From the NCBI GenBank assembly GCA_045545475.1, contig JAZQAZ010000015.1:53096-117095 (forward strand): 64,000 bases of DNA, written 5' to 3'. The stretch is from Clostridia bacterium (GTDB lineage: Bacteria > Bacillota > Clostridia > CAKSNL01 > HGM11501). Made by a program: the position numbers and the translations under genes. Position 1 is the stretch's first letter, and each line of letters opens with the position of its first letter. Below, in pieces: positions 1 to 41,880 of this stretch. Below the pieces are notes generated by a model. The model was not told where the DNA came from. It saw only the letters and a program-made list of their open reading frames with translations, and searched no databases.

Positions 1-2035
1 AGGAAGAAAGTGTTCCCTTACCGCCAAGGTTTACTGCAAAGTCATAGCCTTCCCATCCGGTTGCCCGGTTACGGTCAATGTCAATGTAGATATGCATAAA
101 GCCATCTGCCTCAACTATATCCTTTTGCGCTTTTACAAGGAAATAGATATTTGCATCGTCTCTTGAAACCTTGGATGATAAAATGCGGTTTACTTCCTTT
201 GTAACATAGTGGTATTTTTCTCCTGTTAAGTGGTTTCTCATACCATAGATGTCTCTTTCATATCCTCCACCGATATTTAAATATTCGGGAGTTACGCTGT
301 CCCACTGTGAAAGGTCACCTGCTATATCAATAGCCTTTGCTTCGCCTGCAACACGGGCAGGGCGAACACCCTTATATTTTCTGACGAAGTCTATAAGGAG
401 CATATAATAATCGTCTCTGAGCTTTCCTTTTGAAGGCTCGATATCACGGCTGTTTTCATCGTCAAAGGTGTCAACAAAGGCATTTTCAAAGCCTGAATAC
501 ATACTCTGTCGGGCGGCAATCCATTCGTTCCAGCCACCAACCATTACCATAGCAGGATCTAAATCAAGGACACGTGATTCCTGCTCACGGAAGAAATATC
601 CCTCGTTCATTGCGCCTTCGCGATAATCCTCACCAAAGGCTTCGGTGTAGCTTCTTCCTCTTGTGTATGGGTCTGAAAATACGCCTGTCTTTTCATATTC
701 GAAAACATAGGACTGATTTATCGCAACACCGAGGCTTATACACTCAGGTCTTCCGTCTTCTTCCAAATCCCAGGCTGTCTGAGGATATTTCTGAAGCCAT
801 ACCCAGCTGTTTGCACCGTCTGTATATTCTCCGGCACTTCTGTTTCCCATATCCCTTACAGTGCAGTTATCAAAAATTTCATTTAAAAGTCTGTCGCTTT
901 CCGCGTCACCTGAACCGAAGGACTTATTGGATAAATACTCTCTTGTGGTTCCGCCGAATAAAAGGGGCTTGTCATCCCATGTAAACCAAAGGTCTTTATA
1001 CTGTTCATTTTTAATAAAGTTTAAGTAAATTGCCTTTACCTGCTTTTCTCTTTCCTTATAATCGGATGCCCAGGAATCCATAGCACAGATTTTCGGAACA
1101 TTTACACCTGCTGCCTTTGCATCGGAAAATGCCTGAAACATCAGAATTGTAGTATCAAGGAAAATGTTGCTTCCGTTGGTCCAGTCAAGGAAAACGGTAT
1201 CAACGCCCGCCATTGCAAGCATTTCTGCGTGACGGCGGAATTTGAAGTAGTCATAGTTACTTGTATAACCGAATATAGGCTCTGCCCAGTGATATACCGC
1301 ATTGGTATCCCATGCCTTATGGTTGTAATCATCCTTTGCATCGGGATTTTCCGCAATTATTTCAGAAGGAATTCTTGCATTTGAACCGCTAGAGGGCTTT
1401 GCGGTCGAAAGACTTCTTCCGCCTGACCAGTTCCAGTAGGTTATTCCGACTTTGTGAGTGCCGTTTTTTACATCTCCTACCTCGGCATAATCTGCAATTT
1501 TTCTTCCGAGAGCGTCAGTTGCCGCCAACGTGTCATACCATCCGTCAACAATGGCAGAATCGGGCACAATTGTATATGTATTTTCCACCGCCTTGTCGGA
1601 AAGTATTATTTCCGATACTCTGAACTCGCTTCCCGTATCACCATAGGTTGATTTAAGATATAAATCGTGAACGCCTTCGGTTGCTTCTATATTTGTATAA
1701 AACACCTTGTCATAGGATTCCTTGTCGCTTAAAACAATGTATCCTATGCACTTACCCTTTATGGGATCATCGATGCGAAGAGAAATTGCATCACCGTTTG
1801 AAGATGTTGATGACATATAAAAATCCGCCTTGATTCCGACAGATTTTATACCGGTGAAATCTATCCCCTTATAGCCCGCATACTGATCCATACGGCTTAA
1901 ATTTACCTTTTCACCCGAAAGCGATGCTCCCGATAAATCAAAAGCCGTATTTGCCTTTATTGTTTCTTCTGCCTTAACTAAAATGCAGGATGAAATCATT
2001 ACAAGGCAAAGTATTAAGCTAAGTAATTTTTTCAT
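1..2035 (-). CDS. Secreted CBM6-like + GH99/GH71-like glycoside hydrolase, third paralog of 12954-15725 and 19481-22201 (3' end outside window)
   Basis: Not in the ORF track because it runs off the window. Manual translation from ATG 2035 gives MKKLLSLILCLVMISSCILVKA (signal peptide)...GVHDLYLK...WAEPIFGY...RRHAEMLAMAGVD...GGWNEW...SRDIEPS...DRNRATGWEGYD, with no stop before base 1. Confidence 0.85.
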   Translation of the reverse strand, partial: MKKLLSLILCLVMISSCILVKAEETIKANTAFDLSGASLSGEKVNLSRMDQYAGYKGIDFTGIKSVGIKADFYMSSTSSNGDAISLRIDDPIKGKCIGYIVLSDKESYDKVFYTNIEATEGVHDLYLKSTYGDTGSEFRVSEIILSDKAVENTYTIVPDSAIVDGWYDTLAATDALGRKIADYAEVGDVKNGTHKVGITYWNWSGGRSLSTAKPSSGSNARIPSEIIAENPDAKDDYNHKAWDTNAVYHWAEPIFGYTSNYDYFKFRRHAEMLAMAGVDTVFLDWTNGSNIFLDTTILMFQAFSDAKAAGVNVPKICAMDSWASDYKEREKQVKAIYLNFIKNEQYKDLWFTWDDKPLLFGGTTREYLSNKSFGSGDAESDRLLNEIFDNCTVRDMGNRSAGEYTDGANSWVWLQKYPQTAWDLEEDGRPECISLGVAINQSYVFEYEKTGVFSDPYTRGRSYTEAFGEDYREGAMNEGYFFREQESRVLDLDPAMVMVGGWNEWIAARQSMYSGFENAFVDTFDDENSRDIEPSKGKLRDDYYMLLIDFVRKYKGVRPARVAGEAKAIDIAGDLSQWDSVTPEYLNIGGGYERDIYGMRNHLTGEKYHYVTKEVNRILSSKVSRDDANIYFLVKAQKDIVEADGFMHIYIDIDRNRATGWEGYDFAVNLGGKGTLSS

Positions 2036-6096: not shown

Positions 6097-6110
6097 TTAA
6101 CCTCTTCCCT

Positions 6111-6860: not shown

Positions 6861-6901
6861 AAAACACATCTCCTTTTACATATCAAACCCTGTTTAATAA
6901 A

Positions 6902-6930
6902 ATCATAGCATAAGACTTTTTCCTTGTCAA
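6902..6930 (-). promoter_or_regulatory. sigmaA promoter for MBL-GH20
   Basis: TTGACA-17 bp-TATGAT. Confidence 0.7.
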
Positions 6931-7032
6931 CGTTTTCAAATCGAAAGTTTTTCGAAAACAAAAAATTGTGTAATATATTTGTTTTTTTCGCATTTTTTCG
7001 TAATATTTCAAAAAGTGTTTTTTGCCTCATAT

Positions 7033-7068
7033 AAAAAAATATAGTGGCTGATGTCTATATCAGCCACT
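7033..7068 (-). terminator. Intrinsic terminator after CE15 gene
   Basis: 10-bp stem agtggctgat/atcagccact followed by a T-tract on the minus strand. Confidence 0.75.
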
Positions 7069-7085
7069 GATTTTTATTCAGTATT

Positions 7086-10399: not shown

Positions 10400-10429
10400 A
10401 AAGTTGCCACGCATCTTCGTGGCAACTTT
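10400..10429 (-). terminator. Intrinsic terminator
   Basis: 12-bp inverted repeat aaagttgccacg/cgtggcaacttt right after stop 10433. Confidence 0.75.
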
Positions 10430-10432: not shown

Positions 10433-12940
10433 TCATTCTGCTATTTTGCTTTCAATTGTAATTTCCCTTGTTTCACCGTTCCATGAAACGTTATAGCCAA
10501 GATGTTCAGATACGAATCTTAAGGGAATGAAGGTTCTTCCGTCCTTAATTCTCGGATACTGCGGAAGGGTGTATCTTACCGTTCCGTACTTGGTGCCTTC
10601 AATGGTTACGAGGTTGTTCCATATCTGGATATGGATAACCTTACCGTCCTTTTTAATTGTAACTTTCTGCTCTTCACCTTCCCATAAAACTTCAGCTCCC
10701 ATTTCCTCCAAGAGTCCTCTTAAAGGAATCATTGTGCTTCCGCTTACGATGTATGGTGCAACGTCGGTTGTAACCGTTTTTTCACTGCCGTTTTTCTTAA
10801 CGTAAATTTCATTTTTGTCAACGGTTAATACGTATTTTTCCTGAGCTTTTAAAAGTCTTTCTTCTTTGTCTTTTCTGGTTTCGTAAATTTCAAGCTCTGC
10901 GCACGCCGCCTTATTTGAATAGCCCTCTAAAATTTCAAAACGAAGGAATCTTGCCGTAACTGCCTCATCAAATACAATAAGCTTTACGTTTGCCGAGCGG
11001 GCATTTGAAAGATTTTCCTTTACAAGTGTGTAGTTTTCGCCATCCAATGACGCATAGATATTATATTTCTCCCAGGTTCCGTGCCAGTCGGAGGAGCCAC
11101 GGGGCGTCATATTGATTCTTGAAATCTTTATTTCGTTCATCAGACTTAAATCAACGATGAAGGGTGCGCTTTCGTGGGATGCACTCTGCCAGAAACGGCT
11201 TGTTCCGTCAATCATAAGCTGAGGATGATTGTCAACCCAGGATTCAACGTTTGCAGAAATTCCGGCTACGGAAAGGTCTACCTTTACAAGTCCGTTTTCC
11301 TTTGAATAAGCCGGATAGTCCGAAGGCTTTACCGTGTCATAGTCTGCTAATGGCGATATAAAGTCGATTTCCGCACAGGTTCCGTGCATTTTGGTATCAA
11401 CAATAAGCTTTGCCTTTTTGATGTTTATGTTTGCGGAGAAAAATCTGTTCTTTCTGCCGTTTCCGATATCGAAGGTAAAGGTTTCAACAAGGGTGTATTC
11501 GCCATCATCGGTGTCGGATACATAAAGCTCGCAGGAAAGCCAGTTTCCGCTGTTTCCCGAAGGTCTTGTAGTATAGGCAAAGCCCGATGCCGTAATCGCC
11601 TTATCCATCTTTATTTCGATTGTATAAGGTGGAGGATCGCTGGATGTTATGGTAGAGCCCGATGCGGTGTAATTTGTGTGCCAGAAGGTTGCCGTGTTAT
11701 CGTCAAGCATTGCCTTGGGTGTGGTGAAGGATGCACAGCTTGTCGCCGTGATTGACCACGCCTTTTTACCCTTTACATAGCTTGTGTTAAGTTTTCCGTC
11801 AACCTCTGTCTCCTCGGGTGTTACGGTTTCTGTCTTATCTCCGCCGAGGACAGACTCAGCCGAGGGTTTATCTATATTTCCCTTAAGGATTTTAATTTCC
11901 GCTGCTGTGCCGTAATTTCCCTGGGCTTCTGTCACCTTTATCATAAGAGCCTTATATGTTCCCTTTTCGATTTTAAATGTCACTTCTTCTCTCGTTCTTA
12001 AAACGGTATCAAAATCCAGTGTCACAGTTGCAGAAAGTTTGTATTCTGCACCGTCTTTAGAAGTGTAAATTTCAGCCTTCTTCCAGATACCTGCAGAGGA
12101 TTCGTCTTTTCTCGGAACATAGCTTATGCCGGAAACTTCTCTTTCATCGGGGAATACTATTGTAATTATATGAGGACACTCATCCTTACTTACAATCTGT
12201 CCGTTTTCAACGGTGTAGCTTGTGTGCCAATAGCTTTTTTCATTATTGTCAAATGCTCCCGATATTCCGCCCATTCCGTCGCTGGATGCCTTTATTTCCC
12301 AGCTCTTGGCGTCGGTATAGGATTCCGCTTTTCCTCCCGATGCAGAAGGAGTTGTGATATCCTCCTTTGCACTTTCAATCTTTGTTCCGTCAGACTCTAT
12401 AGCTTTAGTTGTACTTGTAACTTCGCCTTTCAGGATTTTAATTTCTGCCGCTGTTCCGTAGTTGCCCTGAGCTTCCGTTACCTTGATTCTTATCGCCTTG
12501 TAATTGCCCTTTTTAATTGCGACCGTTGCCTCTGCTCTCGATGCAACAAGGTCAAATTCTGCAGTTGTGTTAAGGGTAAAGGTTGCACCGTCAACTGATG
12601 TGTAAATTTCAGCCTTTTTCCATATACCTGCAGAGGATTCGTCTTTTCTGGGAAGATAGCTTATACCGGAAACCTCTCTCTCGTCGGGGAACACGATATC
12701 GATTATGTGAGGACATTCTTCCCTTTTCACAATCTGTCCGTTTTCTACGGTGTAGCTTGTGTGCCAATAGCTCTTTTCGTTATTGTCAAAAGCTCCCGAT
12801 ATTCCGCCCATTCCGTCACTGGAGGCTTTTATTTCCCAGCTCTTTGCATCTGTGTATGCTTCAGACGCAGATACGGGAAGGCAGCATATAACGCTTATTA
12901 TAAGACTTAATGTTAAAGTAAGTGCAAATATTTTCTTCAT
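10433..12940 (-). CDS. Secreted protein: 4x F5/8 type C (CBM32/discoidin-like) domains + C-terminal copper-amine-oxidase-N-like (stalk) domain
   Basis: Signal peptide MKKIFALTL (start 12940, GGAGG RBS); repeated AFDN..YWHT...AAEI units; C-terminal TMIPLRGLLEEMGA...RTFIPLRFVSEHLGY. Confidence 0.8.
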   Translation of the reverse strand: MKKIFALTLTLSLIISVICCLPVSASEAYTDAKSWEIKASSDGMGGISGAFDNNEKSYWHTSYTVENGQIVKREECPHIIDIVFPDEREVSGISYLPRKDESSAGIWKKAEIYTSVDGATFTLNTTAEFDLVASRAEATVAIKKGNYKAIRIKVTEAQGNYGTAAEIKILKGEVTSTTKAIESDGTKIESAKEDITTPSASGGKAESYTDAKSWEIKASSDGMGGISGAFDNNEKSYWHTSYTVENGQIVSKDECPHIITIVFPDEREVSGISYVPRKDESSAGIWKKAEIYTSKDGAEYKLSATVTLDFDTVLRTREEVTFKIEKGTYKALMIKVTEAQGNYGTAAEIKILKGNIDKPSAESVLGGDKTETVTPEETEVDGKLNTSYVKGKKAWSITATSCASFTTPKAMLDDNTATFWHTNYTASGSTITSSDPPPYTIEIKMDKAITASGFAYTTRPSGNSGNWLSCELYVSDTDDGEYTLVETFTFDIGNGRKNRFFSANINIKKAKLIVDTKMHGTCAEIDFISPLADYDTVKPSDYPAYSKENGLVKVDLSVAGISANVESWVDNHPQLMIDGTSRFWQSASHESAPFIVDLSLMNEIKISRINMTPRGSSDWHGTWEKYNIYASLDGENYTLVKENLSNARSANVKLIVFDEAVTARFLRFEILEGYSNKAACAELEIYETRKDKEERLLKAQEKYVLTVDKNEIYVKKNGSEKTVTTDVAPYIVSGSTMIPLRGLLEEMGAEVLWEGEEQKVTIKKDGKVIHIQIWNNLVTIEGTKYGTVRYTLPQYPRIKDGRTFIPLRFVSEHLGYNVSWNGETREITIESKIAE
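11879..12856 (-). repeat. Intragenic near-identical domain duplication (copies ~12425-12856 and ~11879-12319)
   Basis: YTDAKSWEIKASSDGMGGISGAFDNNEKSYWHTSYTVENGQIV...KVTEAQGNYGTAAEIKILKG occurs twice; DNA similar with synonymous differences. Confidence 0.9.
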
Positions 12941-12953
12941 GTGCCGTCCCTCC

Positions 12954-15725
12954 TTAATCAAGTAATGCCGCAGCAGAAAGTGCTGCATTTTTATCTATTT
13001 CATGGCTCGATACAGCATAAATTCCGTTACCGAGACTTTCCGCCTTCCATCCGAATACATCGGCAAAATATGTATATGGCAGGTAAATTATTCCGTCAAT
13101 ATTTTTACATACTGCAGAAAGATAATTTGCCTTTCCGTTTACTCTTACTTCAGCTGAACCTATAACATTGCATGACCAGATATAATCTTCAATCTGTGCA
13201 CGAATTGATTTGTTACCTCTGTAGTCTGCCAGAGGTTCATCTGAAAGTCCCAAGTTAAAGTTCTTTACAAAAACCATATTAAGGTCGGAATAATACTCAA
13301 CCTTAGTTTCACCATATCCCAAGATTTCCTCTGCCGCAAAGAGGGGTACATATAAAACGCCGTTTTCTTCAAAAGAATTTACCCTTATATCTGACTCGTT
13401 TACATACATTTCTCCGCCGTTTACATTCATTTTCGCACTTCCCGCCCTAAATACCGAAGTATCTGAAAGTGCCTTTCTGGTTGTTTCATCAAGGGAAACT
13501 TCTTCAATTTCTGTATAGAGATAATTAAAACGTCCGAGAGGTGCAACACTGCCGAATTCGTATAATCTTAAAATATCTCCGTTTTCTTCTGCTCCGTCTG
13601 CCCACTTAAATTCAAAATCGGAAACGGTTTCTCCAAGGAGCCAGATGGGTATAGAAACCATAAATGTGTTTTCCTTCATGCTAGTGGGGCAATCAGCAAC
13701 CTTTGCCCATGCACCGTTATAGCCTGCGGCAGAAAGCTCGCCAAATCCCGATACGTTAAATGAGAAGTCATAGCCTTCCCAGCCTGTCGCTCTGTTTCTG
13801 TCAACATCTATATAAAGATGCATGAAAGAGTCGCCTTTTTTGATAGGCTCTTCTGTTTCTACAAGGAAGTAATAGTTTGCATCGTCACGTGCAACCTTTG
13901 CTCCCGTAATGTAGTTTGAAAGCTTTGTGACATAACGATAGTTTTCTCCCGTTTCGGGATTTACGTAGCCGTAATCGTCACGCTCATAAGCTCCTCCTAC
14001 ATTCAGGTAGTGCGGAGTAACATCTGCCCACTGTTCGCTACCCATATTTATGTCAATGGTCTTTTTCGCTGATGCGACAGGTGCTTTTCTTACGCCCTTA
14101 TACTTTCTTATAAAGTCTGTCATCATCATATAATAGTCATCACGAAGACTTCCTCGTGAAGGCTCCATATCACGGCTCTTTTCTTCGCTGTAAGTATCAA
14201 CAAATGCGTTCTCAAATCCCGAATAACCGTTATGACGGCCGTTCTGCCATTCATTCCATCCGTCAATTAATACAATCGCCGGATCAACCGAGAGTGCACG
14301 GGAAATCTGTTCGCGGAAGAAATAGCCGATGTTTTTAGCTTCAGGTCTAAAGTCATCACCAAACGCTTCGGAATACCCTCTGCCCTTAGTGTAGGGATCA
14401 GAAAATACGCCGTTATCGTCATATTCATATTCGTAGGAGTGGTTGATTGCAGTACCTACCGGCACGCACTCAACTCTGCCGTCAGCTGTTACGCCCCACT
14501 TGGTCTGAGGATAGTTCTGAAGCCAGTTCCAGGCCCCTGTGGGTTCACTGTCGCCTGCACCTCTGTAGCCGTTACAGCGGAAGGTGAACTTATCTATGAT
14601 ATCTTCCATAATATCGTTTCTTGAAAAGTCTTCTCCGGGCTTGAAGCTGCTTTCCGGCGAAGGTGTCATAAGCAGGTACTTACCATCAAGCTGATACCAT
14701 ATATCGGCATAAGCTTCTTCTCTTATTATGCTTAAGTAAACCGCCTGACAGAATCTTTCTCCTCCGCCCCAGGGACCGAGAGCCGAAAGTTCCGGAATGT
14801 CAACGCCGTCCTTCTTGGCATCCAAAAATGCTTCAAGAAGAACTTCCATTGAATTCCAGAAAACAACCTGTCCGTTGGACCAGTCAAAAAGAAGAAAGTC
14901 AACTCCTGCTGCCGAAAGCATTTCTGCATGACGGCGGTAAACCCAATAATCTCTTGAATGGTAGTAGCCAAAAAGGGGCTCGCCCCAGTAATATGCCCCT
15001 GATATACCTTTGGATTCGGGCCAGGCGGGATGGTCATAGTCATCCTTTGCATCGGGGTACTTTTCAATAAGCTTTTCCTGAAGAGTTACAACGCTTTTGG
15101 GCACTCCGTTAAGCCCGAAATTAACCCAGTAGAAAATACCCACATCGTGAAGTCCTTCCTTCACGGGACCTGCTTCTTCATAGCCTGCCAGTTTTCTGCC
15201 CAAAGCATCGGTTCCAACCCAGGTATCGGAAAAATCGTCAATGATGGCTGAATCAGGAACAACAGGAACACTCGGTGCTTCTTCCTTGGAGAGAATAACG
15301 TCCTTTATGTAAATTTCCTGGTCGGAAATATAGGTAGTCTGAATATAAAGCTTTACCTTTCCGCTTACGGGATACAAAAGGTTTCCGGAATAAACCTTGT
15401 CCTTTGAATCCATATCGTGAACACTTATATAGCCCACACAGTCTCCCTCTAAGGGATCGCCGATTCTTATTCTGAATGTTTCTCCGTTTTCGCTTGAAAC
15501 AATTTTGCAGTCGGCAACTAATGAGATAGACTTAACTCCTGTCATATCAACGTCATCCCATCCTATATAGGCACTGTTTTTAAGCCTTACACCGTTTTCA
15601 GTTTTTTCAGCGTTTGACTCAAAGTCTGCCTTGGTAACATCCAAATTCATATCGCCATCTTCAGCGAAACAGAATGTGGGTGCCATGATTACAAGGCACA
15701 AAAGAATACACAAAGCTTTTTTCAT
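12954..15725 (-). CDS. Secreted CBM6-like + GH99/GH71-like TIM-barrel hydrolase + beta-sandwich + stalk-like domain
   Basis: Signal peptide; YWGEPLFGYYHSRD, RRHAEMLSAAGVD, IDGWNEW, SRDMEPS; C-terminal GVLYVPL/GIIYLPY..DVFGW. Confidence 0.7.
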   Translation of the reverse strand: MKKALCILLCLVIMAPTFCFAEDGDMNLDVTKADFESNAEKTENGVRLKNSAYIGWDDVDMTGVKSISLVADCKIVSSENGETFRIRIGDPLEGDCVGYISVHDMDSKDKVYSGNLLYPVSGKVKLYIQTTYISDQEIYIKDVILSKEEAPSVPVVPDSAIIDDFSDTWVGTDALGRKLAGYEEAGPVKEGLHDVGIFYWVNFGLNGVPKSVVTLQEKLIEKYPDAKDDYDHPAWPESKGISGAYYWGEPLFGYYHSRDYWVYRRHAEMLSAAGVDFLLFDWSNGQVVFWNSMEVLLEAFLDAKKDGVDIPELSALGPWGGGERFCQAVYLSIIREEAYADIWYQLDGKYLLMTPSPESSFKPGEDFSRNDIMEDIIDKFTFRCNGYRGAGDSEPTGAWNWLQNYPQTKWGVTADGRVECVPVGTAINHSYEYEYDDNGVFSDPYTKGRGYSEAFGDDFRPEAKNIGYFFREQISRALSVDPAIVLIDGWNEWQNGRHNGYSGFENAFVDTYSEEKSRDMEPSRGSLRDDYYMMMTDFIRKYKGVRKAPVASAKKTIDINMGSEQWADVTPHYLNVGGAYERDDYGYVNPETGENYRYVTKLSNYITGAKVARDDANYYFLVETEEPIKKGDSFMHLYIDVDRNRATGWEGYDFSFNVSGFGELSAAGYNGAWAKVADCPTSMKENTFMVSIPIWLLGETVSDFEFKWADGAEENGDILRLYEFGSVAPLGRFNYLYTEIEEVSLDETTRKALSDTSVFRAGSAKMNVNGGEMYVNESDIRVNSFEENGVLYVPLFAAEEILGYGETKVEYYSDLNMVFVKNFNLGLSDEPLADYRGNKSIRAQIEDYIWSCNVIGSAEVRVNGKANYLSAVCKNIDGIIYLPYTYFADVFGWKAESLGNGIYAVSSHEIDKNAALSAAALLD

Positions 15726-15765
15726 ATTTTACCCTTCCCTTCTTATTACTTATCAGCTTAAACTG

Positions 15766-15838
15766 ATTATAACACCACAAAAAATAAATTTATATATAAA
15801 ATCGTACATATTTAATGAAAAAATTATAAAATCGTACA
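15766..15838 (-). promoter_or_regulatory. Extended -10 promoter with upstream 14-bp direct repeat (candidate AraC operator)
   Basis: TGtTATAAT (-10 at 15766-15771), poor -35; tataaaatcgtaca at 15795-15808 and 15825-15838. Confidence 0.55.
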
Positions 15839-15994
15839 CTCGTGTTGTAATTTATATATTTTTCTGTATTTTATTATAATGCATTTTCTCACCCTTATCA
15901 ATAGCTAAAATATCTCAAAACATGCACAAAATAATTTTAAACCTTGAAAAAAACGCAATTAGCATATATAATTATTCAGAAGGGAGTAATTTTT

Positions 15995-16849
15995 ATGATT
16001 ATGAACGTAGCATACTCGAGCACAGATAAAGTTTCTGACATAGAAGATTTGTCACGTCCTCTCAAAATAAATTGCTGTGGACATTTCATTGTAGATTCCC
16101 GCCCCGGTATAACAACCGAGCATCCCGAAGGCAGACGTGACTATCAGCTTATATATATAGCATCCGGCAAAGGACATTTTTATTTTGACGGAATCGAGCA
16201 CATTGTAACACAAGGGCATATGATTTTATTCAGACCTCACGAGCCCATGCAGTATTATTATTATCCGGAAGATAAAACCGACGTATATTGGGTGCATTTT
16301 ACCGGAAAGGACGTCCCCTTGCTACTCAAACATTATGAGCTTCCCGAAAACGGAAACATATTCTACACCGGGGTTTCTCCCGATTATCAGTGGATATACC
16401 GCCAGCTGATACGTGAGCTTCAGCTTAAGCGAACAAATTATGAGGAAATGCTTTCTCTTTTACTAAATCATATATTCTTGGTTATAAACCGCTATATCAA
16501 AGAGAGTAACACCCCCGGAAGCGATATGGTAAACGAAATTGAGAGAGCAGTTTCCTATTTTACGGAAAACTACCAAAAAGATATAAGCATTGAAGCTTAT
16601 GCAACAGAACGAAGTATAAGCAAAAACTGGTTCATCCACAGTTTCAGGAGAATAATGAAAGTAACCCCCATGCAATACATTTTGTCACTTCGCATCTCTG
16701 CCGCAAAAGCTTACCTTGAAAGCACTGAAAAAAATATAACCGAAATAGCCTATGCCGTAGGCTATGATAACCCATTATACTTTTCAAGACTCTTTAAAAA
16801 ATTCACAGACCAATCTCCTTCAGAATACAGAAAACAAAGGCAGGATTAA
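15995..16849 (+). CDS. AraC family transcriptional regulator (divergent from GH99-like/CBM32 pair)
   Basis: N-terminal cupin-like domain, C-terminal ITEIAYAVGYDNPLYFSRLFKK..SPSEYR; start at ATG 15995 behind GGGAG. Confidence 0.92.
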   Translation: MIMNVAYSSTDKVSDIEDLSRPLKINCCGHFIVDSRPGITTEHPEGRRDYQLIYIASGKGHFYFDGIEHIVTQGHMILFRPHEPMQYYYYPEDKTDVYWVHFTGKDVPLLLKHYELPENGNIFYTGVSPDYQWIYRQLIRELQLKRTNYEEMLSLLLNHIFLVINRYIKESNTPGSDMVNEIERAVSYFTENYQKDISIEAYATERSISKNWFIHSFRRIMKVTPMQYILSLRISAAKAYLESTEKNITEIAYAVGYDNPLYFSRLFKKFTDQSPSEYRKQRQD

Positions 16850-16866
16850 CCTGCCTTTGTTTTTTT
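16831..16866. terminator. Bidirectional terminator between convergent genes
   Basis: aaaacaaaggcagg/cctgcctttgtttt inverted repeat. Confidence 0.75.
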
Positions 16867-19465
16867 ACTGTTCGTTTGTAATTGTAATAGTCTTAGTTTC
16901 GCCATCCCATAAAACAGTATACCCAAGATGTTCAGAGCAGAATCTTAAAGGAATGAATGTTCTTCCTTCGACAATTCTTGGTTCCTGATTAAGGGTATAT
17001 CTCACTCTTCCGTAGCGACCGCCGGTTACATAAACGATGTTGTTCCATATCTGAAATTCTATCTTCATCAATGAATTTTCAACGATTATGGACTGATTTT
17101 TGTCAACCCATTCTATTGTGGCTCCCATTTCCTCCAAAAGTCCTCTTAAAGGAATAAGGGTGTAGCCTTCATCAATGAACGGAGAAACATCCAACGTTAC
17201 GTTCTTTGTTTCCCCGCCCTTCGTAACTTCAATTACCGGAGAGCCTATCTTTAGCACATATTTTTCAAAATTGCTTTCTTGGCTGTCTTTATAATCTCCG
17301 GCAGACTGATAGAAGGTAACTTCTGCACAGGATGCTTTGTTTGTATAGCCTTCCACTATTTCAAACTCCACATAGCGTGCCTTTACTGGAGAATCAAACT
17401 TAACATTTTTAACCTTCATGCTTCGCTCAAAGCTGTGGTTTTCAAGGACACATTCATAATTTTCTCCGTCTAAGCTTACCCACACGTTAAATAAATCCCA
17501 GTTTCCGTGAAAATCCTCACTTTGTCTCGGTGCCACATCAAAGGAGTCAATACTCCATTCTCCGCCAAGGTCGATTGTTAAAATAAAAGGTTCCTTTTCT
17601 TCCGAAGCAGTCTGCCAGAAGCCTGTCATAGCCTCATCCAAAACACCTGACGGCTCGTGATTAAGCCAGAAGCCCTGAGGTGAGGATGCACTCATATTGG
17701 CCTTCGGTATTTCGTACACGGCAATTTCATCATAGATTTCGGTGTATTCTGCAGGTGTTACGGTTTTCTTTGCAGGATCAGACTTATAAAAGTCGATTTC
17801 CGCACAGCTTCCGTAACCTCCTACGCCCTCTTTAATTTCATATCTTATACGCTTTGCCTTTATGTTTGCGGCAAACATCTTCATTTTTTTACCGTTGTCC
17901 TCGTCAGCTGTGCCTTCTTCAATTAAAACCCAGTCATCCGAATCATCGATACATCCGTAAATAGCATACTTTGTGGGGTTTCCTGCCTCTCCGTCCGGTC
18001 TTGTTGTAAACTCAACGCCTGAAAGCTCCCTTACTTCGGGGAAGGTTATATCTATATAGTGAGGCGGAAGCTCTCTTGATACAATTATGGAACCTTCGTT
18101 TTTATAGTCTGAGTGCCAGTAATTTACATAGTCACCGTCGATGGGGCGACGCATATAGGCATTATCCTTCACTTTGGAGCTTGAAAGTTTTACTTCCCAG
18201 GCACCCTTACCAGTAAGATAGGTACCGTCGTCTCCCTGCACATCATCTGTGTTTGTTGCAGAAGCTCCGGATTCCTCTTTTTTTGTATCTGAAGACGTAT
18301 TTTCGTTTTCCCGTGTGGAGCTTTTGTAGTCCTTTAATGCTACGGTCTTCTTTGATGCATCACTCACCATAAACTCGATTTCCGTACAGGATGCATAACC
18401 GTCTACGCTGTCGGTTATCTTGAAGCGTACCTTTTTTGCACTTACGTTGGAATTAAGGAGTACTTCAAACTGTGCTGCCCCCTTTACTGCCGTTCCCGAC
18501 TCTAAAAATACCCAGGTTTCGGAATCGTCGGCACATCCGTATATAGAATATTTAAGGGGATTACCCGCTGTACCTGTTACACGGTTTATGAATACAACTC
18601 CGGAGAAGGTTCTCGCCTCGGGGAAGGTTATATCCACAAAGTGCGGAGGATTAACCTTTCCTGTAATCTGGCTTCCTTCGTTGGTGTAGTCTGTGTGCCA
18701 GTGCTGTTCCATATCGGTATCTATAGGGCGGCGGACATAGCCATCACTTTTTACCTTGGAGCTTGAAACGGTAACATCCCAGCTTTCCTTGCCTGTTAAA
18801 TACTTACCGTCATCGCTCTGATGCACTCCCGGATTTCCTTTGGAAGTGAGGCTTACCGCAGCATCTCCTGTTGAAGGTTTCTCGGTATTTTCCTGTGTAT
18901 TTTCTGTTGCCGTCGTTTCGGTGTCTTTTACATCGCCCTTCAGCATTATAATTTCTGCGGCGGTGCAATAGCCGCTATTTGCCGCAGTAACGATGAACTT
19001 AATTGACTTGTAACTTCCCTTTTCAATAGCTCTGTCTGCAGTTGCCCGGCTTTTTGCAAGGTCATATGTTACTTCTCTTAAAAGCTTATATTCGCTTCCG
19101 TCAGCACTTCCGTAAATTTCAACCTTTTCCCATATGCCTGATGTGGAATCCACATTGTTTTTCTGACGAGGAACATATCTTACGCCTGAAATTTCAAGAG
19201 CTTCGGGAAATTCTATTATGATTTCGTAGGGAGGATTATCGTGTCCTACTACCTTTCCGTCCTCAACATAATATTTTGAATGCCAGTAGGTATTAATATC
19301 ACCGTCTATCGCCTTTGTGATGTCGTTAAATTCGCCCATTATGCTCTCTGTCGTAATTGTCCAGCCCGATGTGTCGGTATAGGCATCCTCCGCAAAGGAA
19401 GGAATAACGAAAAGCATTGATGTTATAAGACTTAATGCAAGTAAAAGTGTAAATATCTTTTTCAT
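16865..19465 (-). CDS. Secreted protein: 4x F5/8 type C domains + stalk domain (paralog of 10433-12940)
   Basis: Signal peptide; AIDGDINTYWHS, PIDTDMEQHWHT, PIDGDYVNYWHS, VLDEAMTGFWQT; TLIPLRGLLEEMGA...RTFIPLRFCSEHLGY. Confidence 0.8.
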   Translation of the reverse strand: MKKIFTLLLALSLITSMLFVIPSFAEDAYTDTSGWTITTESIMGEFNDITKAIDGDINTYWHSKYYVEDGKVVGHDNPPYEIIIEFPEALEISGVRYVPRQKNNVDSTSGIWEKVEIYGSADGSEYKLLREVTYDLAKSRATADRAIEKGSYKSIKFIVTAANSGYCTAAEIIMLKGDVKDTETTATENTQENTEKPSTGDAAVSLTSKGNPGVHQSDDGKYLTGKESWDVTVSSSKVKSDGYVRRPIDTDMEQHWHTDYTNEGSQITGKVNPPHFVDITFPEARTFSGVVFINRVTGTAGNPLKYSIYGCADDSETWVFLESGTAVKGAAQFEVLLNSNVSAKKVRFKITDSVDGYASCTEIEFMVSDASKKTVALKDYKSSTRENENTSSDTKKEESGASATNTDDVQGDDGTYLTGKGAWEVKLSSSKVKDNAYMRRPIDGDYVNYWHSDYKNEGSIIVSRELPPHYIDITFPEVRELSGVEFTTRPDGEAGNPTKYAIYGCIDDSDDWVLIEEGTADEDNGKKMKMFAANIKAKRIRYEIKEGVGGYGSCAEIDFYKSDPAKKTVTPAEYTEIYDEIAVYEIPKANMSASSPQGFWLNHEPSGVLDEAMTGFWQTASEEKEPFILTIDLGGEWSIDSFDVAPRQSEDFHGNWDLFNVWVSLDGENYECVLENHSFERSMKVKNVKFDSPVKARYVEFEIVEGYTNKASCAEVTFYQSAGDYKDSQESNFEKYVLKIGSPVIEVTKGGETKNVTLDVSPFIDEGYTLIPLRGLLEEMGATIEWVDKNQSIIVENSLMKIEFQIWNNIVYVTGGRYGRVRYTLNQEPRIVEGRTFIPLRFCSEHLGYTVLWDGETKTITITNEQ

Positions 19466-19480
19466 TTTTCTCCCTCCTTA

Positions 19481-22201
19481 TTAAAATTCCGATGCTGCAG
19501 TTTTAACTGCATTTACATCAATTTCGTGACTTGATACTGAGAATATATCACCTTCATTATACATCTTCCAGCCAAATACGTCACACACATAGGTTAAAGG
19601 CACATAGCAAAGACCGTCTTTAACAACTACCGGAGCCTGTAATGTCGCAGCTTCGCCGTTGATTCTTACTTCATTTGTGCCAATATATGTATATGACCAG
19701 ATATTATCTGTAATTTCAAAGTTTTTAAGATTGAAATTCTTAAGGAAGAACATATTCTTGCTCTGACGGTATTCATATTTTGTTTCGCCGTCACCCAGGA
19801 TATATTCAAAGGCACTTGCAGGCACATAAAGAGTTCCGTTTTCCATAAAGGTTGAAACTCTTGTATCAGCGTCGTAAACATAGTTTTTTCCGCCGTTTAC
19901 AAACATTTTATTTTCACCCGCTTTAAATACCGATGTATCGGAAAGTGCGTTTCTTGTTTCAGCATCAAGGCTCTTTTGCGGAACTTCTGTGTAAAGATAG
20001 TTAAAGCGTCCCATGGGAGCAACGCTTCCGAATTCGTAAAATCTTAAAATATCTCCGTTTTCAAAAGAATAGTCTGCCCATTTAAATTCAAGGTCTGCCT
20101 TATCGGTTTCACCGAGTATGCCCCTTGGAATCGAAACCGTATATACATTTCCTGTTATGTTTAAAGTTGCATCGGCCTCTTTAATCCATACCCCTTCCTT
20201 GTAGCTTGCAATTTCGCCCTTGCCTGTTACATTAACGGAGATGTCATATCCTTCCCAGCCTGTTGCCCAGTTTCTGTCAACATCAATATAAAGGTGCATA
20301 AAGGAGTCATTGTCCTTAATATCATCTTCGCACTCTGCCATGAAGTAGAAATAATTTTTGTCTCTGGCAACCTTTGCACTTCTTATAACATTTGAAAGCT
20401 TTGATATAAACACATATTTCTCTCCGGTATCGCCGTTGGTAAGACCTGTTGCATTTCTTTCATAACCGCCTTCTATGTTGATAAATCGGGGTTCTACATT
20501 ATCCCACTGCGATACGTCACCGCTTAAGTTAATGGTTGTTTCACCGCTTGCTAAAGGTGCAGGACGAACGCCCTTATATTTTCTAATATAGTCAACCAAT
20601 ATGTTGTAATAGCCGTCCTTAAGCACTCCTGCCGACGGTTCAAAGTCTCGGCTGTTTTCATCGTCAAAGGTATCAACAAAGGAGTTTTTGAAGCCTGAAT
20701 ATTCTGAATTTCTTACCGCTGTCCATTCGTTCCAACCGTCAATCATAACCATAGCGGGATCAAGTGCCAAAACTCTTGACATCTGCTCTCTGAAGAAATA
20801 TCCCATATGCATAGCTTCCTCCCTGTAGTCTTCGCCAAAGCCTTCTGTGTAGCTTCTTCCCTTTGTGTAGGGGTCTGAAAACACACCTGTTTTTTCAAAC
20901 ATAAATACGTATGATTGGTTTATTCCCGTACCTGCAGATACGCTTTCGACTCTGCCGTCAGCCATTTTGCCGTAAGCTGTCTGGGGATACTGCATAAGCC
21001 AGTTCCATGCCTTTTCATCGGAGTATTCTCCGCCCTGACGACTTCCATTTTGCCTGAAGGTAAAGTATTCAAATATTTCCTTAAGAAGTGCATCGTTTTC
21101 CGAATCTTCTCCTGTTACAAAACGAGAGAGCGTATCAGGATTGGTCGAGCCAAACATAACGGGCTTTCCTTCCCACTTATACCAGAGATCGTTATACTTT
21201 TCAGGCTTGAAGTAGTTAAGGTAAAGGCACTTAATCTGTGCAAGCCTGTGTTCGTAGTCTCCGCTCCATGAGGAAAGACAGCTTACTCCCGGAACATTAA
21301 CGCCCGCCTTTTTTGCATCGTAAAATGCTGAAAAGAGGATATTTGTCTGAGTTATAAAAGCACTTCCTCCATTGGAAAAGTCAAAGAAGATTGCATCCAC
21401 TCCCGCATTTGCCAGCATTTCCGCATGACGGCGATATACCCAGTATTCATTACTTGTGTAAAAACCAAAGAGAGGTTTTGACCAGAAATAGTTTCCGTTG
21501 ATATCCCATACGTCACTGTAATAATTTTCCTTTTCTGAAGGATGAGCAGCAATTATCTCGGAGGGGATTCTTGCATTATGAATGTCTGTCACGGTCCAGT
21601 TCCAGTAAAGCATACCCACCTCGTGGAGGCCTTCCTTTACTTCGCCGACTTCTTCATAGTCGGCAAGTTTTCTTCCCATATGGTCAGTTCCTGCCCATGT
21701 ATCTGAGAAGTTATCGATGATTGCAGTATCGGGAACAGGCACATAGGTATTTTCAACAATTTCTCCGGAAAGAACAATTTCTTTTACCGAGATGGCGTTG
21801 TTTCCGCCATAGGTTGCCACAACATAAAGGTCGTGAACTCCTGTTACTTCTTTTATATTTGTTGAAAAAACACCGTCAATGGCGTTGCCTTCGTTGAATA
21901 CAACATAGCCAAGACATTCACCCTTTTGGGGATCGTCAATTCTTATGCCGAAAGCCTCACCGTTTGCACCGCCTGTAATTATGGAATCCCCCTTGATTGA
22001 TATACTCTTAATACCGGTTAAATCCACATTTGAAAAGGCGATATACCTTCCCTTCGCAAAGCCTTTAACTGCATTTCCGGAAACCGACACTCCGCTGCTT
22101 TTTGAAAAGGACACCGCAATTAAAGTTTTGTCCGCTGCAAAGGAAGTCACAAGGGACAGTGCCAGAATTAAGGCAAGTGTCAGGCAAGCTAACTTTTTCA
22201 T
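19481..22201 (-). CDS. Secreted CBM6-like + GH99/GH71-like hydrolase + stalk-like domain (paralog)
   Basis: Signal peptide; GVHDLYVV; WSKPLFGFY, RRHAEMLANAGVD, IDGWNEW, SRDFEPS, DRNWATGWEGYD. Confidence 0.7.
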   Translation of the reverse strand: MKKLACLTLALILALSLVTSFAADKTLIAVSFSKSSGVSVSGNAVKGFAKGRYIAFSNVDLTGIKSISIKGDSIITGGANGEAFGIRIDDPQKGECLGYVVFNEGNAIDGVFSTNIKEVTGVHDLYVVATYGGNNAISVKEIVLSGEIVENTYVPVPDTAIIDNFSDTWAGTDHMGRKLADYEEVGEVKEGLHEVGMLYWNWTVTDIHNARIPSEIIAAHPSEKENYYSDVWDINGNYFWSKPLFGFYTSNEYWVYRRHAEMLANAGVDAIFFDFSNGGSAFITQTNILFSAFYDAKKAGVNVPGVSCLSSWSGDYEHRLAQIKCLYLNYFKPEKYNDLWYKWEGKPVMFGSTNPDTLSRFVTGEDSENDALLKEIFEYFTFRQNGSRQGGEYSDEKAWNWLMQYPQTAYGKMADGRVESVSAGTGINQSYVFMFEKTGVFSDPYTKGRSYTEGFGEDYREEAMHMGYFFREQMSRVLALDPAMVMIDGWNEWTAVRNSEYSGFKNSFVDTFDDENSRDFEPSAGVLKDGYYNILVDYIRKYKGVRPAPLASGETTINLSGDVSQWDNVEPRFINIEGGYERNATGLTNGDTGEKYVFISKLSNVIRSAKVARDKNYFYFMAECEDDIKDNDSFMHLYIDVDRNWATGWEGYDISVNVTGKGEIASYKEGVWIKEADATLNITGNVYTVSIPRGILGETDKADLEFKWADYSFENGDILRFYEFGSVAPMGRFNYLYTEVPQKSLDAETRNALSDTSVFKAGENKMFVNGGKNYVYDADTRVSTFMENGTLYVPASAFEYILGDGETKYEYRQSKNMFFLKNFNLKNFEITDNIWSYTYIGTNEVRINGEAATLQAPVVVKDGLCYVPLTYVCDVFGWKMYNEGDIFSVSSHEIDVNAVKTAASEF

Positions 22202-22341
22202 ACTATTTCCTCCTAAAAATAAGTTGACAAGTAATTGACTCTACATATATAATACAATTAAATAATTTATAATTCAAGTAAAATATTGCACTTTTAAGCG
22301 AAAAAAACAAAAATATTATTATTTAAAAAAGAAGGTACTTT

Positions 22342-23112
22342 ATGGAATTTTATCAGGTAAAATCTTTGTGGCCCGAAAAGAAAGGTTTTTCCCTTTACCG
22401 GCCGAAGATAAACGATGAATATATCTTCCTTCACTTCCTTACACCTGCCACACTTTTTCTTTCCGGCGAATATGTCCCCGTAAAAGCAGGTGCCTCCATT
22501 TTTTACGCCCCCGGCTCGTGTCAGGAATTTTCCTCAAATGACTCCGAGCTTCTTCACGACTGGTTTCACGTGTCTTCTGATTTTTCACAATTAATGGAAA
22601 AATATGGGGTTTTTCCGGGGAAAATTTATTATCCGGAAAGTGCCGAAATAACCGAAATTGTAAGAGAAATAGAACTTGAATGTCTTACATCCGGGGTACA
22701 TTTTCACGATGCCGCAAGGCTCCTTTCAGAAAAACTTTTAATTACTCTTTCAAGAAGTGCATCAGATGAAAATCCCCTCCCCCAATCTCCCGGAGACCTT
22801 CATAAAAAACAGTTTATATATGCACGAAGCCATATTCATATGGACTATAAACGAGACTGGTCGATAGACGAAATGGCCGAGCTGGTTCATTTAAGTGCTT
22901 CCCGTTTTTTCACATTATATAAAAATATTTTCGGAATATCTCCAAAGGAAGATTTGTTAAAATCCCGCATACAGCACGCAGAAATGCTCCTTTCCCAAGG
23001 GTATTCCGTTAAAGAAGTAGCAACGCTTTCAGGTTTTTCCAATCAGTATAATTTCATAAGGCAATTTAAAAAGATAACCGGCCAGACCCCCGGGAAATAT
23101 AAAAAGGACTGA
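22342..23112 (+). CDS. AraC family transcriptional regulator (divergent from second pair)
   Basis: HDWFHV sensor domain; SVKEVATLSGFSNQYNFIRQFKKITGQTPGKY. Confidence 0.92.
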   Translation: MEFYQVKSLWPEKKGFSLYRPKINDEYIFLHFLTPATLFLSGEYVPVKAGASIFYAPGSCQEFSSNDSELLHDWFHVSSDFSQLMEKYGVFPGKIYYPESAEITEIVREIELECLTSGVHFHDAARLLSEKLLITLSRSASDENPLPQSPGDLHKKQFIYARSHIHMDYKRDWSIDEMAELVHLSASRFFTLYKNIFGISPKEDLLKSRIQHAEMLLSQGYSVKEVATLSGFSNQYNFIRQFKKITGQTPGKYKKD

Positions 23113-24920: not shown

Positions 24921-25012
24921 TTTTATTCCCCCTTATACTTTGTTTACTTAATTATAGCACAGGAGAAAATTAAAATCCTTAAATTTTTTTACCGTTTTTC
25001 TGCCTTTTTTCT

Positions 25013-25819
25013 TTATTTTTTTGTTATTCTCAAAAAATCCTTCATCAATTCCTCTGTCGGAGCTTCATATCGGAAACATTCTCTGTTAAGTGCCGTATAT
25101 TTATGTTCTCCCATTTCATGATACGGCAAAAGCTCCACATCTTTTATCCGTAAACCTAAAAGAAAATCCGCTATCTTTTTCATTTCGGCAGAATCATCGT
25201 TAAAGCCCGGAATTACAGGGATTCTTATTATGATATCCCCTTTGAATTTTTCCGAAAGCTTTTTAAGATTTTTTATTATCTGCTTGTTTGAAACACCGGT
25301 TCCTTTAATGTGCAATTTTTCCGAAAAGCACTTTATATCATATAAAAACAAATCTGTATACGGCAAAATTTTTTCAAATCTATCCCAGGGTACATTTCCT
25401 GCCGTGTCAACTGCCGTATGTATTCCGTTTTCCTTGCACATTTTAAGGATTTCCAAAAGAAAATCCATTTGCAGCATACATTCTCCACCCGAAAATGTTA
25501 CTCCGCCGCCTGATGTTTCGTAAAAACTTTTATCCTTTATAATTTCATTAAAAACCTCATCAACAGTATATTCTTTTCCACAGATTTCCTTTGCATCATT
25601 AAAGCAGAAAAAACTTTCATTATCCACAGACAAATTTTCACATCTGCCGCATTTGGTGCATTTATTTTCATAAAACAGGATTTCCTTTTCAAAATGTTGA
25701 CTCTCAGGATTATGGCACCATTTGCATCTTAAGTTGCATCCCTTAAAAAATACCGTTGTCCGTATTCCCGGACCGTCGACATATGAATTTCTTTGTATAT
25801 CAAAAATTATTGCTTTCAT
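25013..25819 (-). CDS. Glycyl-radical enzyme activating enzyme (radical SAM)
   Basis: DGPGIRTTVFFKGCNLRCKWCHNPE, GGVTFSGGE, LLPYH; short ferredoxin-like insert CTKCGRC...C. Confidence 0.95.
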   Translation of the reverse strand: MKAIIFDIQRNSYVDGPGIRTTVFFKGCNLRCKWCHNPESQHFEKEILFYENKCTKCGRCENLSVDNESFFCFNDAKEICGKEYTVDEVFNEIIKDKSFYETSGGGVTFSGGECMLQMDFLLEILKMCKENGIHTAVDTAGNVPWDRFEKILPYTDLFLYDIKCFSEKLHIKGTGVSNKQIIKNLKKLSEKFKGDIIIRIPVIPGFNDDSAEMKKIADFLLGLRIKDVELLPYHEMGEHKYTALNRECFRYEAPTEELMKDFLRITKK

Positions 25820-25938
25820 CAAATTCTCCTATAATCACTCAAAAAATAAAATGTAAGTTTTGCAATTTCATCAGGGCGTATATAACGTTCTGTTGCGTGA
25901 CGTTTGTATTTTTTGATTTATTGTTCCTGAAGCAGCAT

Positions 25939-41878: not shown

Positions 41879-41880
41879 TT

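Follow-up and report, generated by a model that had tools for sequence, protein, structure and literature searches.

We analysed a 64,000-nucleotide stretch of the genome of an uncultured gut bacterium of the Clostridia (assembly GCA_045545475.1, contig JAZQAZ010000015.1, positions 53,096 to 117,095; hereafter the window), which carries two copies of a gene pair, H and L, and the 5' part of a third H gene. H encodes a secreted protein with a glycoside hydrolase (GH)-like barrel, L encodes a secreted protein with lectin-like F5/8 type C domains, and both end in a stalk domain of the PF07833 (Cu_amine_oxidN1) type. We find that H and L are a real, family-specific and massively amplified enzyme-lectin pair and that, with good computational support, their stalks are predicted to join as a heterodimer. 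Assembly of an enzyme and a lectin into such a putative stalk-docked complex appears to be undescribed. Our literature search found no earlier account of the pair or of the H family, and a recent CAZy family number could be missed by it.

Pairing, duplication and distribution of H and L

The genome (G000; 2.74 Mb in 50 contigs, 95% complete, 0.4% contamination) contains 42 full-length H genes, and each of the 42 has an L gene downstream on the same strand. The two genes are directly adjacent in 41 pairs, while the remaining pair is split by a 274-aa gene that by eye resembles a sugar isomerase. Given 42 of 42, the pairing is not due to chance. The pairs span 223,764 bp, or 8.2% of the genome, over 22 of the 50 contigs. 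A preliminary description of the window, made from its sequence, had suggested that the pair was amplified and diversified. Indeed, beyond the number of pairs, the H paralogs are only 30–82% identical to one another (median 41%). H and L duplicated together, as the two genes have the same nearest paralog in 25 of 40 pairs (two pairs were omitted for a missing or internal stalk). An assembly artefact or contamination was ruled out by the number of contigs with pairs, the low contamination and the recurrence of the expansion in sister genomes; as part of this check, the GC content was 42.7% compared with about 41% for the contigs.

In the two L proteins of the window, Pfam finds four F5_F8_type_C (PF00754) stretches each and a Cu_amine_oxidN1 domain (E 1e-32 and 2e-27) and no catalytic family, in agreement with the domain content first proposed for them. 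PF00754 matches are also present in all 40 other paired L proteins, and no catalytic Pfam family was found in any of the 42. The F5/8 domains per L number two (6 genes), three (6), four (23) or five (7), for a total of 157; one L is cut by a contig end, and a fragment on contig C35 is probably its other half. Every complete L has two F5/8 domains and a stalk, which in one protein is divergent and internal. In four L genes the N-terminal domains are replaced by repeats that by eye resemble a β-helix and match no Pfam family. Loci with such repeats were noted at L004:8010-11921, L027:9394-16462, L028:7809-10985, L018:7900-10212 and L038:1696-9699. On contig C37, the β-helix repeats of L recur in two proteins encoded directly downstream, one of 1014 aa and one of 2668 aa; the latter also has F5/8 and SLH domains and is a possible anchored companion.

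The structure model of L2 (pLDDT 83.6, pTM 0.42) has four folds of carbohydrate-binding module (CBM) family 32. The linkers that follow domains 1 and 2 are disordered or of low confidence, and domains 3, 4 and the stalk are connected by short helices. The closest CBM32 structure to an L domain is that of NanJ (2v72; Z 22.8, root-mean-square deviation (rmsd) 1.3, 135 residues aligned). By pattern, a Trp-His motif is kept in 106 of the 114 non-terminal F5/8 domains, and His and Arg are both present in 98 of them. We take the His/Arg pair to be the galactose site of CBM32, and the Trp-His motif presumably acts in galactose binding. The terminal F5/8 domain mostly lacks the motif His and has Trp-Gln in 24 of 41 cases. 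In fold, tandem arrangement and secretion, L is like the CBM32 arrays of C. perfringens (NanJ 2v72, GH89 4a44, ZmpB 7jnb). However, those modules sit in the enzyme's own chain, whereas the modules of L sit on a separate product paired with one enzyme.

The 13 other genomes of the family, which makes up the entire order among the genomes examined, all contain H. The relatives with names are uncultured Clostridia metagenome-assembled genomes, one with a title naming goat colon. Copy numbers of H and L track almost 1:1 across these related genomes, with H-type/L-type stalk counts in the 14 of 42/41, 46/45, 47/42, 4/5, 9/10, 35/33, 39/38, 12/11, 17/17, 3/4, 16/12, 10/11, 10/11 and 1/0. At the GTDB loci of relatives, L follows H in 72 of 73 evaluable cases (a further 14 H genes were truncated at contig ends, and one duplicate was removed). 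The lone exception, L082 (5884-9901), has a split H followed by a fragmented L remnant and may be either a pair decaying together or a faulty assembly.

A survey of 400 class genomes, scoring no more than 10 candidates in each, detected L-type stalks in 10 genomes, all from the H-L family. The H catalytic core is more widespread, occurring in 21 of 300 class genomes with up to 60 candidate loci, and thousands of homologs in Bacteroidota and others are named 'hypothetical' or 'DUF5010 domain-containing'. The H family numbers at least 6,320 proteins, most of them annotated as 'hypothetical', with 1,181 clusters found at E<=1e-30, and all 30 matches to H in the ESM Atlas are 'hypothetical protein' clusters. 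No L partner lies beside any of 14 H-homolog genes from six outgroup Clostridia, including two with ordinary stalks, and no stalk match was found in 49 metagenome loci of standalone H homologs. The preliminary description had let its proposal depend on H and L being neighbours in other genomes. They are neighbours within the lineage; outside it the enzyme homologs stand without L, indicating that the pair is a family-specific invention. In G012, a divergent member of the family, just one full-length H has both a clearly H-type stalk and enough downstream sequence to judge, and an F5/8 gene comes after it (L123). Thus L, which is absent beside the ordinary-stalk homologs, appears with the derived H stalk.

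Several related arrangements were noted. In other Clostridia families (G123, G173, G273, G296, G027), members of the GH99/71-like family to which H belongs have multiplied without L, in 7 of 7 genomes of one family and with up to 60 first-look candidates in G123. Several of them resemble lipoproteins, and their multiplication suggests that specialisation on one substrate class arose repeatedly. F5/8 domains are fused to the H core in 5 of 42 homologs scanned. An H with two fused N-terminal F5/8 domains (P0004; L120:1-3036; G002:C30:60160-64237) is still followed by a short two-domain L, indicating that the L core is needed beyond supplying CBM32s. Two L genes (812 and 971 aa), each bearing an L-type stalk, come after a single H at L141:1977-10205 (G011).

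Predicted docking of the H and L stalks

Both partners were proposed early on to end in copper-amine-oxidase-N-like stalks. For L this is evident from strong PF07833 matches, while for H it is seen in a weak profile match and in the fold, which aligns to residues 7-81 of E. coli amine oxidase (1d6u; Z 11.0, rmsd 1.6, 74 residues). The genome has 108 PF07833 matches. In a quick tree that included 24 other stalk domains of the same genome, the H stalks form one clade (42 rows, SH-aLRT 100) and the L stalks another (support 94), apart from the other 24. The L stalks have lost the Val-Asn-Gly hairpin and the H stalks the Trp-x-Gly motif.

To the preliminary description, a predicted interaction of the C-terminal domains was decisive for its proposal, and such an interaction is predicted. 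The complex model of the H2 and L2 stalks has an interface score (ipSAE) of 0.71, compared with 0.00 for the best of three controls; the mark is attained by 116 of 157 solved pairs and by 2 of 215 mismatched ones, which is only a rough guide for our own alignments. Three runs agree in 100% of contacts, of which there are 19–20, with partner pLDDT of at least 86. Covariation was calculated between the full H and the last 450 residues of L for 52 representatives sharing less than 70% identity. Of 390,280 column pairs, the two with the highest scores, H819-L807 (z 9.2) and H846-L791 (z 8.7), are both modelled contacts, and the 20 modelled contacts have a mean z of 1.93 compared with -0.03±0.22 for shuffled pairings (0/60). 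Position pair 819/807 is occupied by F-W (9), K-E (8), Y-R (6), R-Q (4) or H-Q (4), and 850/789 is basic-acidic in 28 of 52 representatives with the charge reversed in H2/L2. The stalk-stalk block holds 25 of the top 200 covarying pairs (11.7 expected), and outside it no block was clearly enriched as a second H-L interface. In leave-one-out partner matching with all 20 contacts, the cognate partner has a mean rank of 11.9 of 50, compared with 28.0±2.4 for entropy-matched non-contact columns (0/300). A matching test with nine pairs (mean rank 9.1) was set aside, since those pairs had been picked after their scores were seen.

Other PF07833 domains point to a different arrangement. In the available part of PMC10432803, a PF07833-annotated domain homodimerises a Paenibacillus superoxide dismutase (PaSOD, 8imd), and the excerpt of PMC11334425 gives PF07833 homodimerisation as a prediction. 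H and L might therefore be co-transcribed and act separately, with each stalk homodimerising or binding the wall and with the covariation and model score arising from ancestry and from likeness to known dimers. Distances of all H and L domains do correlate from co-duplication (Mantel p<=0.04 throughout), and the stalk is the most conserved part of L (55% mean identity), as expected for a common ligand. However, shared ancestry does not single out two spatially adjacent contacts among all the column pairs, and the entropy-matched non-contact columns fail to predict partners. Additionally, the charge and aromatic swaps at 819/807 and the charge reversal at 850/789 are compensatory, and L is found exactly where the H stalk is derived. 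We consider separate action very unlikely. The H stalk aligns to 1d6u and L passes Pfam, and a dimerising role is established for PaSOD; the cited cases are homodimers, whereas H and L have two derived subfamilies that are apparently heterodimeric. Together, adjacency, shared nearest paralogs and covarying stalk contacts bear out the proposal of a dedicated pair, and the predicted binding of H to L through their stalks is probable.

Other secreted proteins combine two ordinary stalks with F5/8, GDSL or β-helix domains (L035:162-3083, L036:4335-7283, L011:2492-4780) and are possible adaptors in a wider stalk network. Proteins of the stalk-domain type are treated as oxidases in the available portion of PMC5434538, a treatment not used here.

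Fold, acidic residues and possible substrates of H

The model of H2 is of high confidence (pLDDT 91.9, pTM 0.91). Its barrel is closest to GH99 (Z 19.1, rmsd 4.5, 275 residues aligned, top rank), the best match among 48,161 chains being MANEA, and the barrel together with the β-sandwich matches GH71 chains at Z 14.5-15.3. The N-terminal domain is CBM6-like (Z 18.6 and rmsd 1.6 to 2v4v; profile E 8e-7 to 1gmm), and the loop that bears Trp in solved CBM6s is variable in the H consensus. By Pfam, H2 matches CBM_6 (5e-8) and Cu_amine_oxidN1 (6.5e-9). H1 matches Cu_amine_oxidN1 at cut-off and Glyco_hydro_99 below it (E 2e-4; 21 vs 33 bits), while H2 and H0 have no match to the GH99 family PF16317. 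NCBIfam has no family for H or L. A sequence search of the PDB returned nothing for H2, only CBM6 for the H profile and only a chance match to IMPDH for the catalytic-core profile.

According to the available parts of PMC12394665 and PMC11025385, the β8-α8 loop opens with a D/E-x-x-E dyad in both GH99 and GH71. The catalytic motif of GH99 is given as EW[H/G]E (PMC11025385, in part), and in GH71 both acids are needed, loss of the second cutting activity 1,600-15,000-fold (PMC12394665, in part). In H, E492 takes the place of the first dyad acid, right behind the last barrel strand, and is conserved in 42 of 42 paralogs; its equivalence to the GH99 Glu is based on the motif, the local Pfam match and the position after strand 8, not on residue-level superposition. 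A Glu at +3 of E492 occurs in 0 of 42 paralogs, which have the pattern EW-x-A/T/V/S/N. Among 297 aligned homologs the +3 residue is Ala in 88%, and WNEW-x-A is normal in standalone homologs of about 600 aa. D274, E492, D510 and D519 are present in every one of the 42 paralogs, and their conservation is 1.00 across 293-297 aligned homologs. D510 and D519 lie within the extended β8-α8 loop and D274 at the end of barrel strand 2, and one of these three probably supplies the second acid.

Lacking the second dyad acid, H is a member of neither GH99 nor GH71. The barrel and the invariant Glu liken H to GH99 (BxGH99 4ad2, human MANEA 6zdc), but identity is 12-16%, a hairpin with the invariant D510 is inserted in the β8-α8 loop, and CBM6-like, β-sandwich and stalk domains are added. 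Thus, of the original label, a GH99-like TIM barrel is retained and GH99 as a family assignment is not, given the absent ExxE and the sub-threshold PF16317 match. Barrel then β-sandwich is also the order in the GH71 α-1,3-glucanases (Agn1p 8yfh/9m6l, AnGH71C 9fnf). However, membership in GH71 was rejected, since identity is 10-14%, the D-x-x-E dyad is absent (E-W-x-A/T) and there is no GH71 Pfam match.

The missing acid raises an alternative in which the heterodimer is the same and H is a catalytically disabled barrel used as a lectin, the 42 pairs then being an adhesin or receptor repertoire. The absence of an acid at +3 in every paralog fits this, as do the four L genes with β-helix repeats, which by eye are typical of adhesins, and the lack of a nearby transporter or regulator at most pairs. 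On the other hand, WNEW-x-A is normal in standalone homologs that sit among exo-glycosidases in SusC/D loci, and D274, D510 and D519 are kept across phyla where binding-only proteins would more likely vary. We regard a purely lectin-like H as quite unlikely. That standalone homologs, encoded among exo-glycosidases, keep the acidic residues speaks for H being an active enzyme of a new family, and catalysis by H is likely.

For substrate clues we turned to standalone H homologs in 80 metagenome loci, of which the 49 over 10 kb were examined. SusD is present in 15 of the 49, and GH78 or GH106 α-L-rhamnosidase clusters are present in 18, a raw frequency with no background control. H homologs occur in several copies at 23 of 48 loci, some SusC/D-type loci carry F5/8-containing or DUF4959/DUF5000 proteins, and L146 has an aldolase, an isomerase and an FGGY kinase beside H and GH78. 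The genome itself has 9 GH78-type, 9 GH106-type (7 over cut-off) and 10 GH20 matches, and neighbour and genome enzymes fit rhamnose- and N-acetylhexosamine (HexNAc)-containing heteroglycans as H/L substrates. Also recurring beside Bacteroidota H homologs (L142-L221) are DUF5722 (9 loci), a GH127-like cluster (6) and WbsX-like proteins (4); a literature search found no paper on DUF5722.

The complex might instead be aimed at host or dietary glycans such as mucin O-glycans, rhamnogalacturonan side chains, or fungal α-mannan or α-glucan. The closest CBM32s are Gal/GalNAc-binding modules of C. perfringens mucin enzymes, and the prevalence of the Trp-His motif points the same way. Additionally, GH99 and GH71 act on α-mannan and α-glucan, and GH78, GH106, GH28, GH43 and GH42 also act on plant glycans. 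However, the genome, at 95% completeness, has no PL1 or GH88/105 match, no GH28 or lyase is among the 14 recurring Bacteroidota neighbour clusters scanned, and 42 paralogs with so low a median identity would not be required for a single plant or host substrate. A host or dietary target therefore seems unlikely. A very variable class of glycans, such as microbial surface polysaccharides, would explain 42 diverged copies, and we put forward a rhamnose-containing microbial substrate tentatively, at somewhat less than an even chance.

The units of the window and a proposed H-L complex

All ORFs that had been reported for the two H/L/AraC units and for H0, the third H paralog, were recovered at the same positions (Table 1). 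The L1 ORF as called (10433-12988) was revised to start at the ATG at 12940, which lies behind a GGAGG site 13 bp past the H1 stop and gives 835 aa; the H2-L2 gap is 15 bp. The preliminary description saw one three-gene unit repeated in tandem. That layout is present, but recent duplication of the unit together with its AraC gene was ruled out, since the two units are old paralogs: H1 and H2 are 50% identical, L1 and L2 37%, and the AraC proteins 26% over 186 aa, with neither AraC being the best genome match of the other. The order of the two units is preserved in sister genomes (L049, L050). H0 has no adjoining AraC gene, and whether a CBM32 gene follows it outside the window had been left as a question; an L gene with five F5/8 domains (1045 aa; G000:C15:49215-52352 of the contig) lies 15 bp after it. 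The 13-bp direct repeat between H1 and its AraC gene, a candidate AraC operator, is kept in L049 and L050, and its 30-bp spacing was not seen elsewhere in the genome. Promoter and terminator counts equal shuffled means, so single such sites are no more than suggestive.

Table 1. Features of the H-L units in the window
Feature	Positions	Strand	Basis or detail
H0, 5' part of third H paralog	2..2035	-	ORF list; 920 aa in full, runs off window
Terminator-like hairpin, 12 pairs and T run, closing the H1-L1 unit	10400..10429	-	Consensus match
L1: signal peptide, four CBM32-like F5/8 domains, C-terminal L-type PF07833 stalk	10433..12940	-	ORF, Pfam
H1 (923 aa): signal peptide, CBM6-like domain, GH99/71-like barrel, β-sandwich, H-type stalk	12954..15725	-	ORF, Pfam
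Two copies of a 13-bp direct repeat, spaced by 30 bp, between H1 and divergent AraC	15796..15838	.	Candidate AraC operator
AraC-family regulator 1, divergent from H1	15995..16849	+	Likely ATG 15995; ORF as called from 15944
Terminator-like hairpin, 14 pairs, between converging L2 and AraC 1	16831..16863	-	Consensus match
L2 (866 aa), four CBM32-fold domains and stalk	16865..19465	-	ORF, Pfam, structure model
L2 stalk domain, residues 733-866	16868..17269	-	Modelled interface 789-792, 805-808, 810, 822
H2 (906 aa)	19481..22201	-	CBM6-like 24-147, (β/α)8 barrel 160-548, β-sandwich 549-740, stalk 741-906
H2 stalk domain	19484..19981	-	Modelled interface 817, 819, 829-830, 835, 837, 846, 848-850
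H2 putative catalytic loop past last barrel strand	20639..20734	-	W490-N491-E492 (no acid at +3), D510, R518-D519, E521
AraC-family regulator 2, divergent from H2	22342..23112	+	ORF, Pfam

Across the genome, 11 of 41 evaluable H genes have a divergent AraC gene as their nearest genuine upstream neighbour (in two cases past a short, probably spurious ORF). This is well above the background of 82 AraC-like genes in 2,356, but it does not sustain the idea that each copy is under its own sensor. The flanks of the pairs include GH20, GH78, GH106, GH2, GH42, GH43, esterases and housekeeping genes. Among the 120 of 139 flanking genes scanned (E<=1e-8), we found no solute-binding protein, no SusC/D family and one permease, and the whole genome has 14 ABC-permease matches. 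A SusD-like role for L as transport partner, as in the analogy first drawn, was therefore rejected. Three RNA runs of one study covered 6-7% of words, in short scattered contig pieces of mixed identity, from which no evidence on expression or habitat was drawn.

The earlier failure to recognise an SLH, dockerin or LPxTG anchor was repeated here: no SLH or dockerin match lies inside an H or L gene, the genome's SLH and dockerin proteins (four dockerin matches) being separate, and LPxTG occurs in 0 and a doubtful lipobox in 1 of the 84 H and L proteins. A scan of 46 F5/8 proteins gave no cohesin match, and cohesins were not searched for across the genome. L itself could serve chiefly as an adaptor or anchor that displays H by binding the cell's own wall through its conserved stalk face or terminal F5/8 domain, with the extra CBM32s secondary. 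The two-F5/8-plus-stalk core of every L, the short L retained even with F5/8 domains fused to H (L120, G002:C30) and the missing His of the last F5/8 domain are in keeping with this, and PF07833 proteins were found in a surfaceome, as far as the accessible part of PMC4137172 goes. However, PF07833 has no known wall ligand, and in the portion available of a Paenibacillus screen (bioRxiv 10.64898/2026.09.23.753664) four non-SLH candidate binding modules did not label cells, which is weak evidence against wall binding. A single shared anchor would also suffice, whereas 42 co-evolving L proteins with variable arms imply specificity on the substrate side. L as mainly an anchor has little likelihood, and the chances that the H-L complex resides at the cell surface at all are about evenly balanced.

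Of the proposals considered, we favour a two-gene operon for a secreted, heterodimeric glycan-degrading complex, which we judge moderately probable as a whole. H would be an endo-acting glycoside hydrolase whose large, unnamed family is related to GH99/GH71, and L its non-catalytic targeting subunit, with a fixed C-terminal core of two F5/8 domains and a stalk that carries 0-3 extra CBM32 domains or β-helix repeats on flexible linkers. After Sec export the stalks would dock, the Asn-Gly hairpin 846-850 and strand 817-819 of H meeting 789-792 and 805-808 of L. PF07833 stalks, elsewhere homodimerisation domains, would have split into H-only and L-only subfamilies, and interface residues would have changed together during duplication (F-W, K-E and Y-R at 819/807), giving partial cognate preference. 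L would hold the complex on the glycan while H cuts and the genome's exo-enzymes finish the products. Likely substrates would be variable L-rhamnose/HexNAc/Gal heteroglycans, for example capsules and wall polysaccharides of other microbes.

Several observations weigh against this proposal. The second acid of the GH71 dyad is absent from H, scans for SLH, dockerin, LPxTG and lipobox identified no anchor for H or L, and the Paenibacillus modules that failed to label cells may, from the portion available, include a PF07833 domain. The relatives are kin and many of their loci orthologs, so the adjacency counts overstate independence. The modelled interface is small, at 19-20 contacts, and the complex model and the covariation come from the same alignments and are not independent. 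A related stalk homodimer is already solved (8imd, E 4e-4; E. coli amine oxidase E 0.13-0.9), and likeness to it may contribute to the ipSAE pass; the folded pair was cognate only, and close cousins also pass the ipSAE test. Specificity is partial, as the cognate partner ranks first in just 6 of 50 cases and in the top five in 19. Finally, 31 of the 49 H-homolog loci have no rhamnosidase, the neighbour cluster labels are based on one representative each, and the genome has seven weak GH28-type β-helix matches.

In cellulosomes, a cohesin-dockerin docking domain links catalytic proteins to a shared, promiscuous carbohydrate-binding scaffold. H-L resembles this in that a small docking domain would join a catalytic to a carbohydrate-binding, non-catalytic protein outside the cell, but neither H nor L has a dockerin, and each enzyme has one dedicated partner, encoded next to it and with an interface that co-evolves. 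H homologs also occur in the SusC/D loci of Bacteroidota, and L may resemble a surface glycan-binding protein (SGBP) in role. Unlike Sus systems, H-L has no TonB-dependent transporter, lipoprotein anchor or linked transporter, and L is not SusD-like. By analogy, H-L may work like a one-to-one cohesin-dockerin or SGBP-enzyme arrangement while being a member of neither.

The rest of the window holds other gene groups. The region upstream of H0 (2052-8219) encodes two creatininase-like amidohydrolases in tandem, a GNAT-like acyltransferase, GH20 and a CE15-like esterase, which may serve to de-acylate sugars. A RACo-type corrinoid reactivator (ASKHA and 2Fe-2S; 8847-10355) lies directly downstream of L1 past its terminator. 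Positions 23148-29477 encode a 590-aa protein with a weak NAGLU_N match and, named by eye, a radical-SAM activase, a peptidase-like gene and a glycyl-radical enzyme. An ADP-ribosylglycohydrolase-family protein with a long C-terminal extension (30449-32245) stands beside an AraC gene in a sugar-use context. Also named by eye are an ordinary-looking ctsR-mcsA-mcsB-clpC operon (40884-45343) and a fumarase/fumarate reductase/Hdr-Flx-like cluster (47023-58329).

H-L gives the PF07833 domain, very common in secreted proteins of Bacillota and poorly understood, a testable function with named residues, partner-specific heterodimerisation. It also points to a large unnamed GH99/71-like family with a catalytic dyad unlike that of both relatives, multiplied in several uncultured Clostridia lineages. 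The 42 natural, covarying pairs offer a dataset for asking how cross-talk between paralogous complexes is avoided, and could also supply orthogonal protein tags. A broader reading, possible but rather doubtful, is that PF07833 stalks are a general extracellular docking code of Bacillota, equivalent there to cohesin-dockerin, with 40-odd insulated heterodimers, a microbial-glycan grazer and a new GH family in H. If so, each heterodimer would be tuned to a different bacterial capsule or wall polysaccharide, catalysis by H would differ from the GH99/GH71 dyad, possibly that of endo-α-L-rhamnanases, and the organism would be a specialist grazer of the glycans of other gut microbes. Should the substrates be microbial, the pair would matter for the question of which organisms in the gut recycle the capsules and walls of bacteria.

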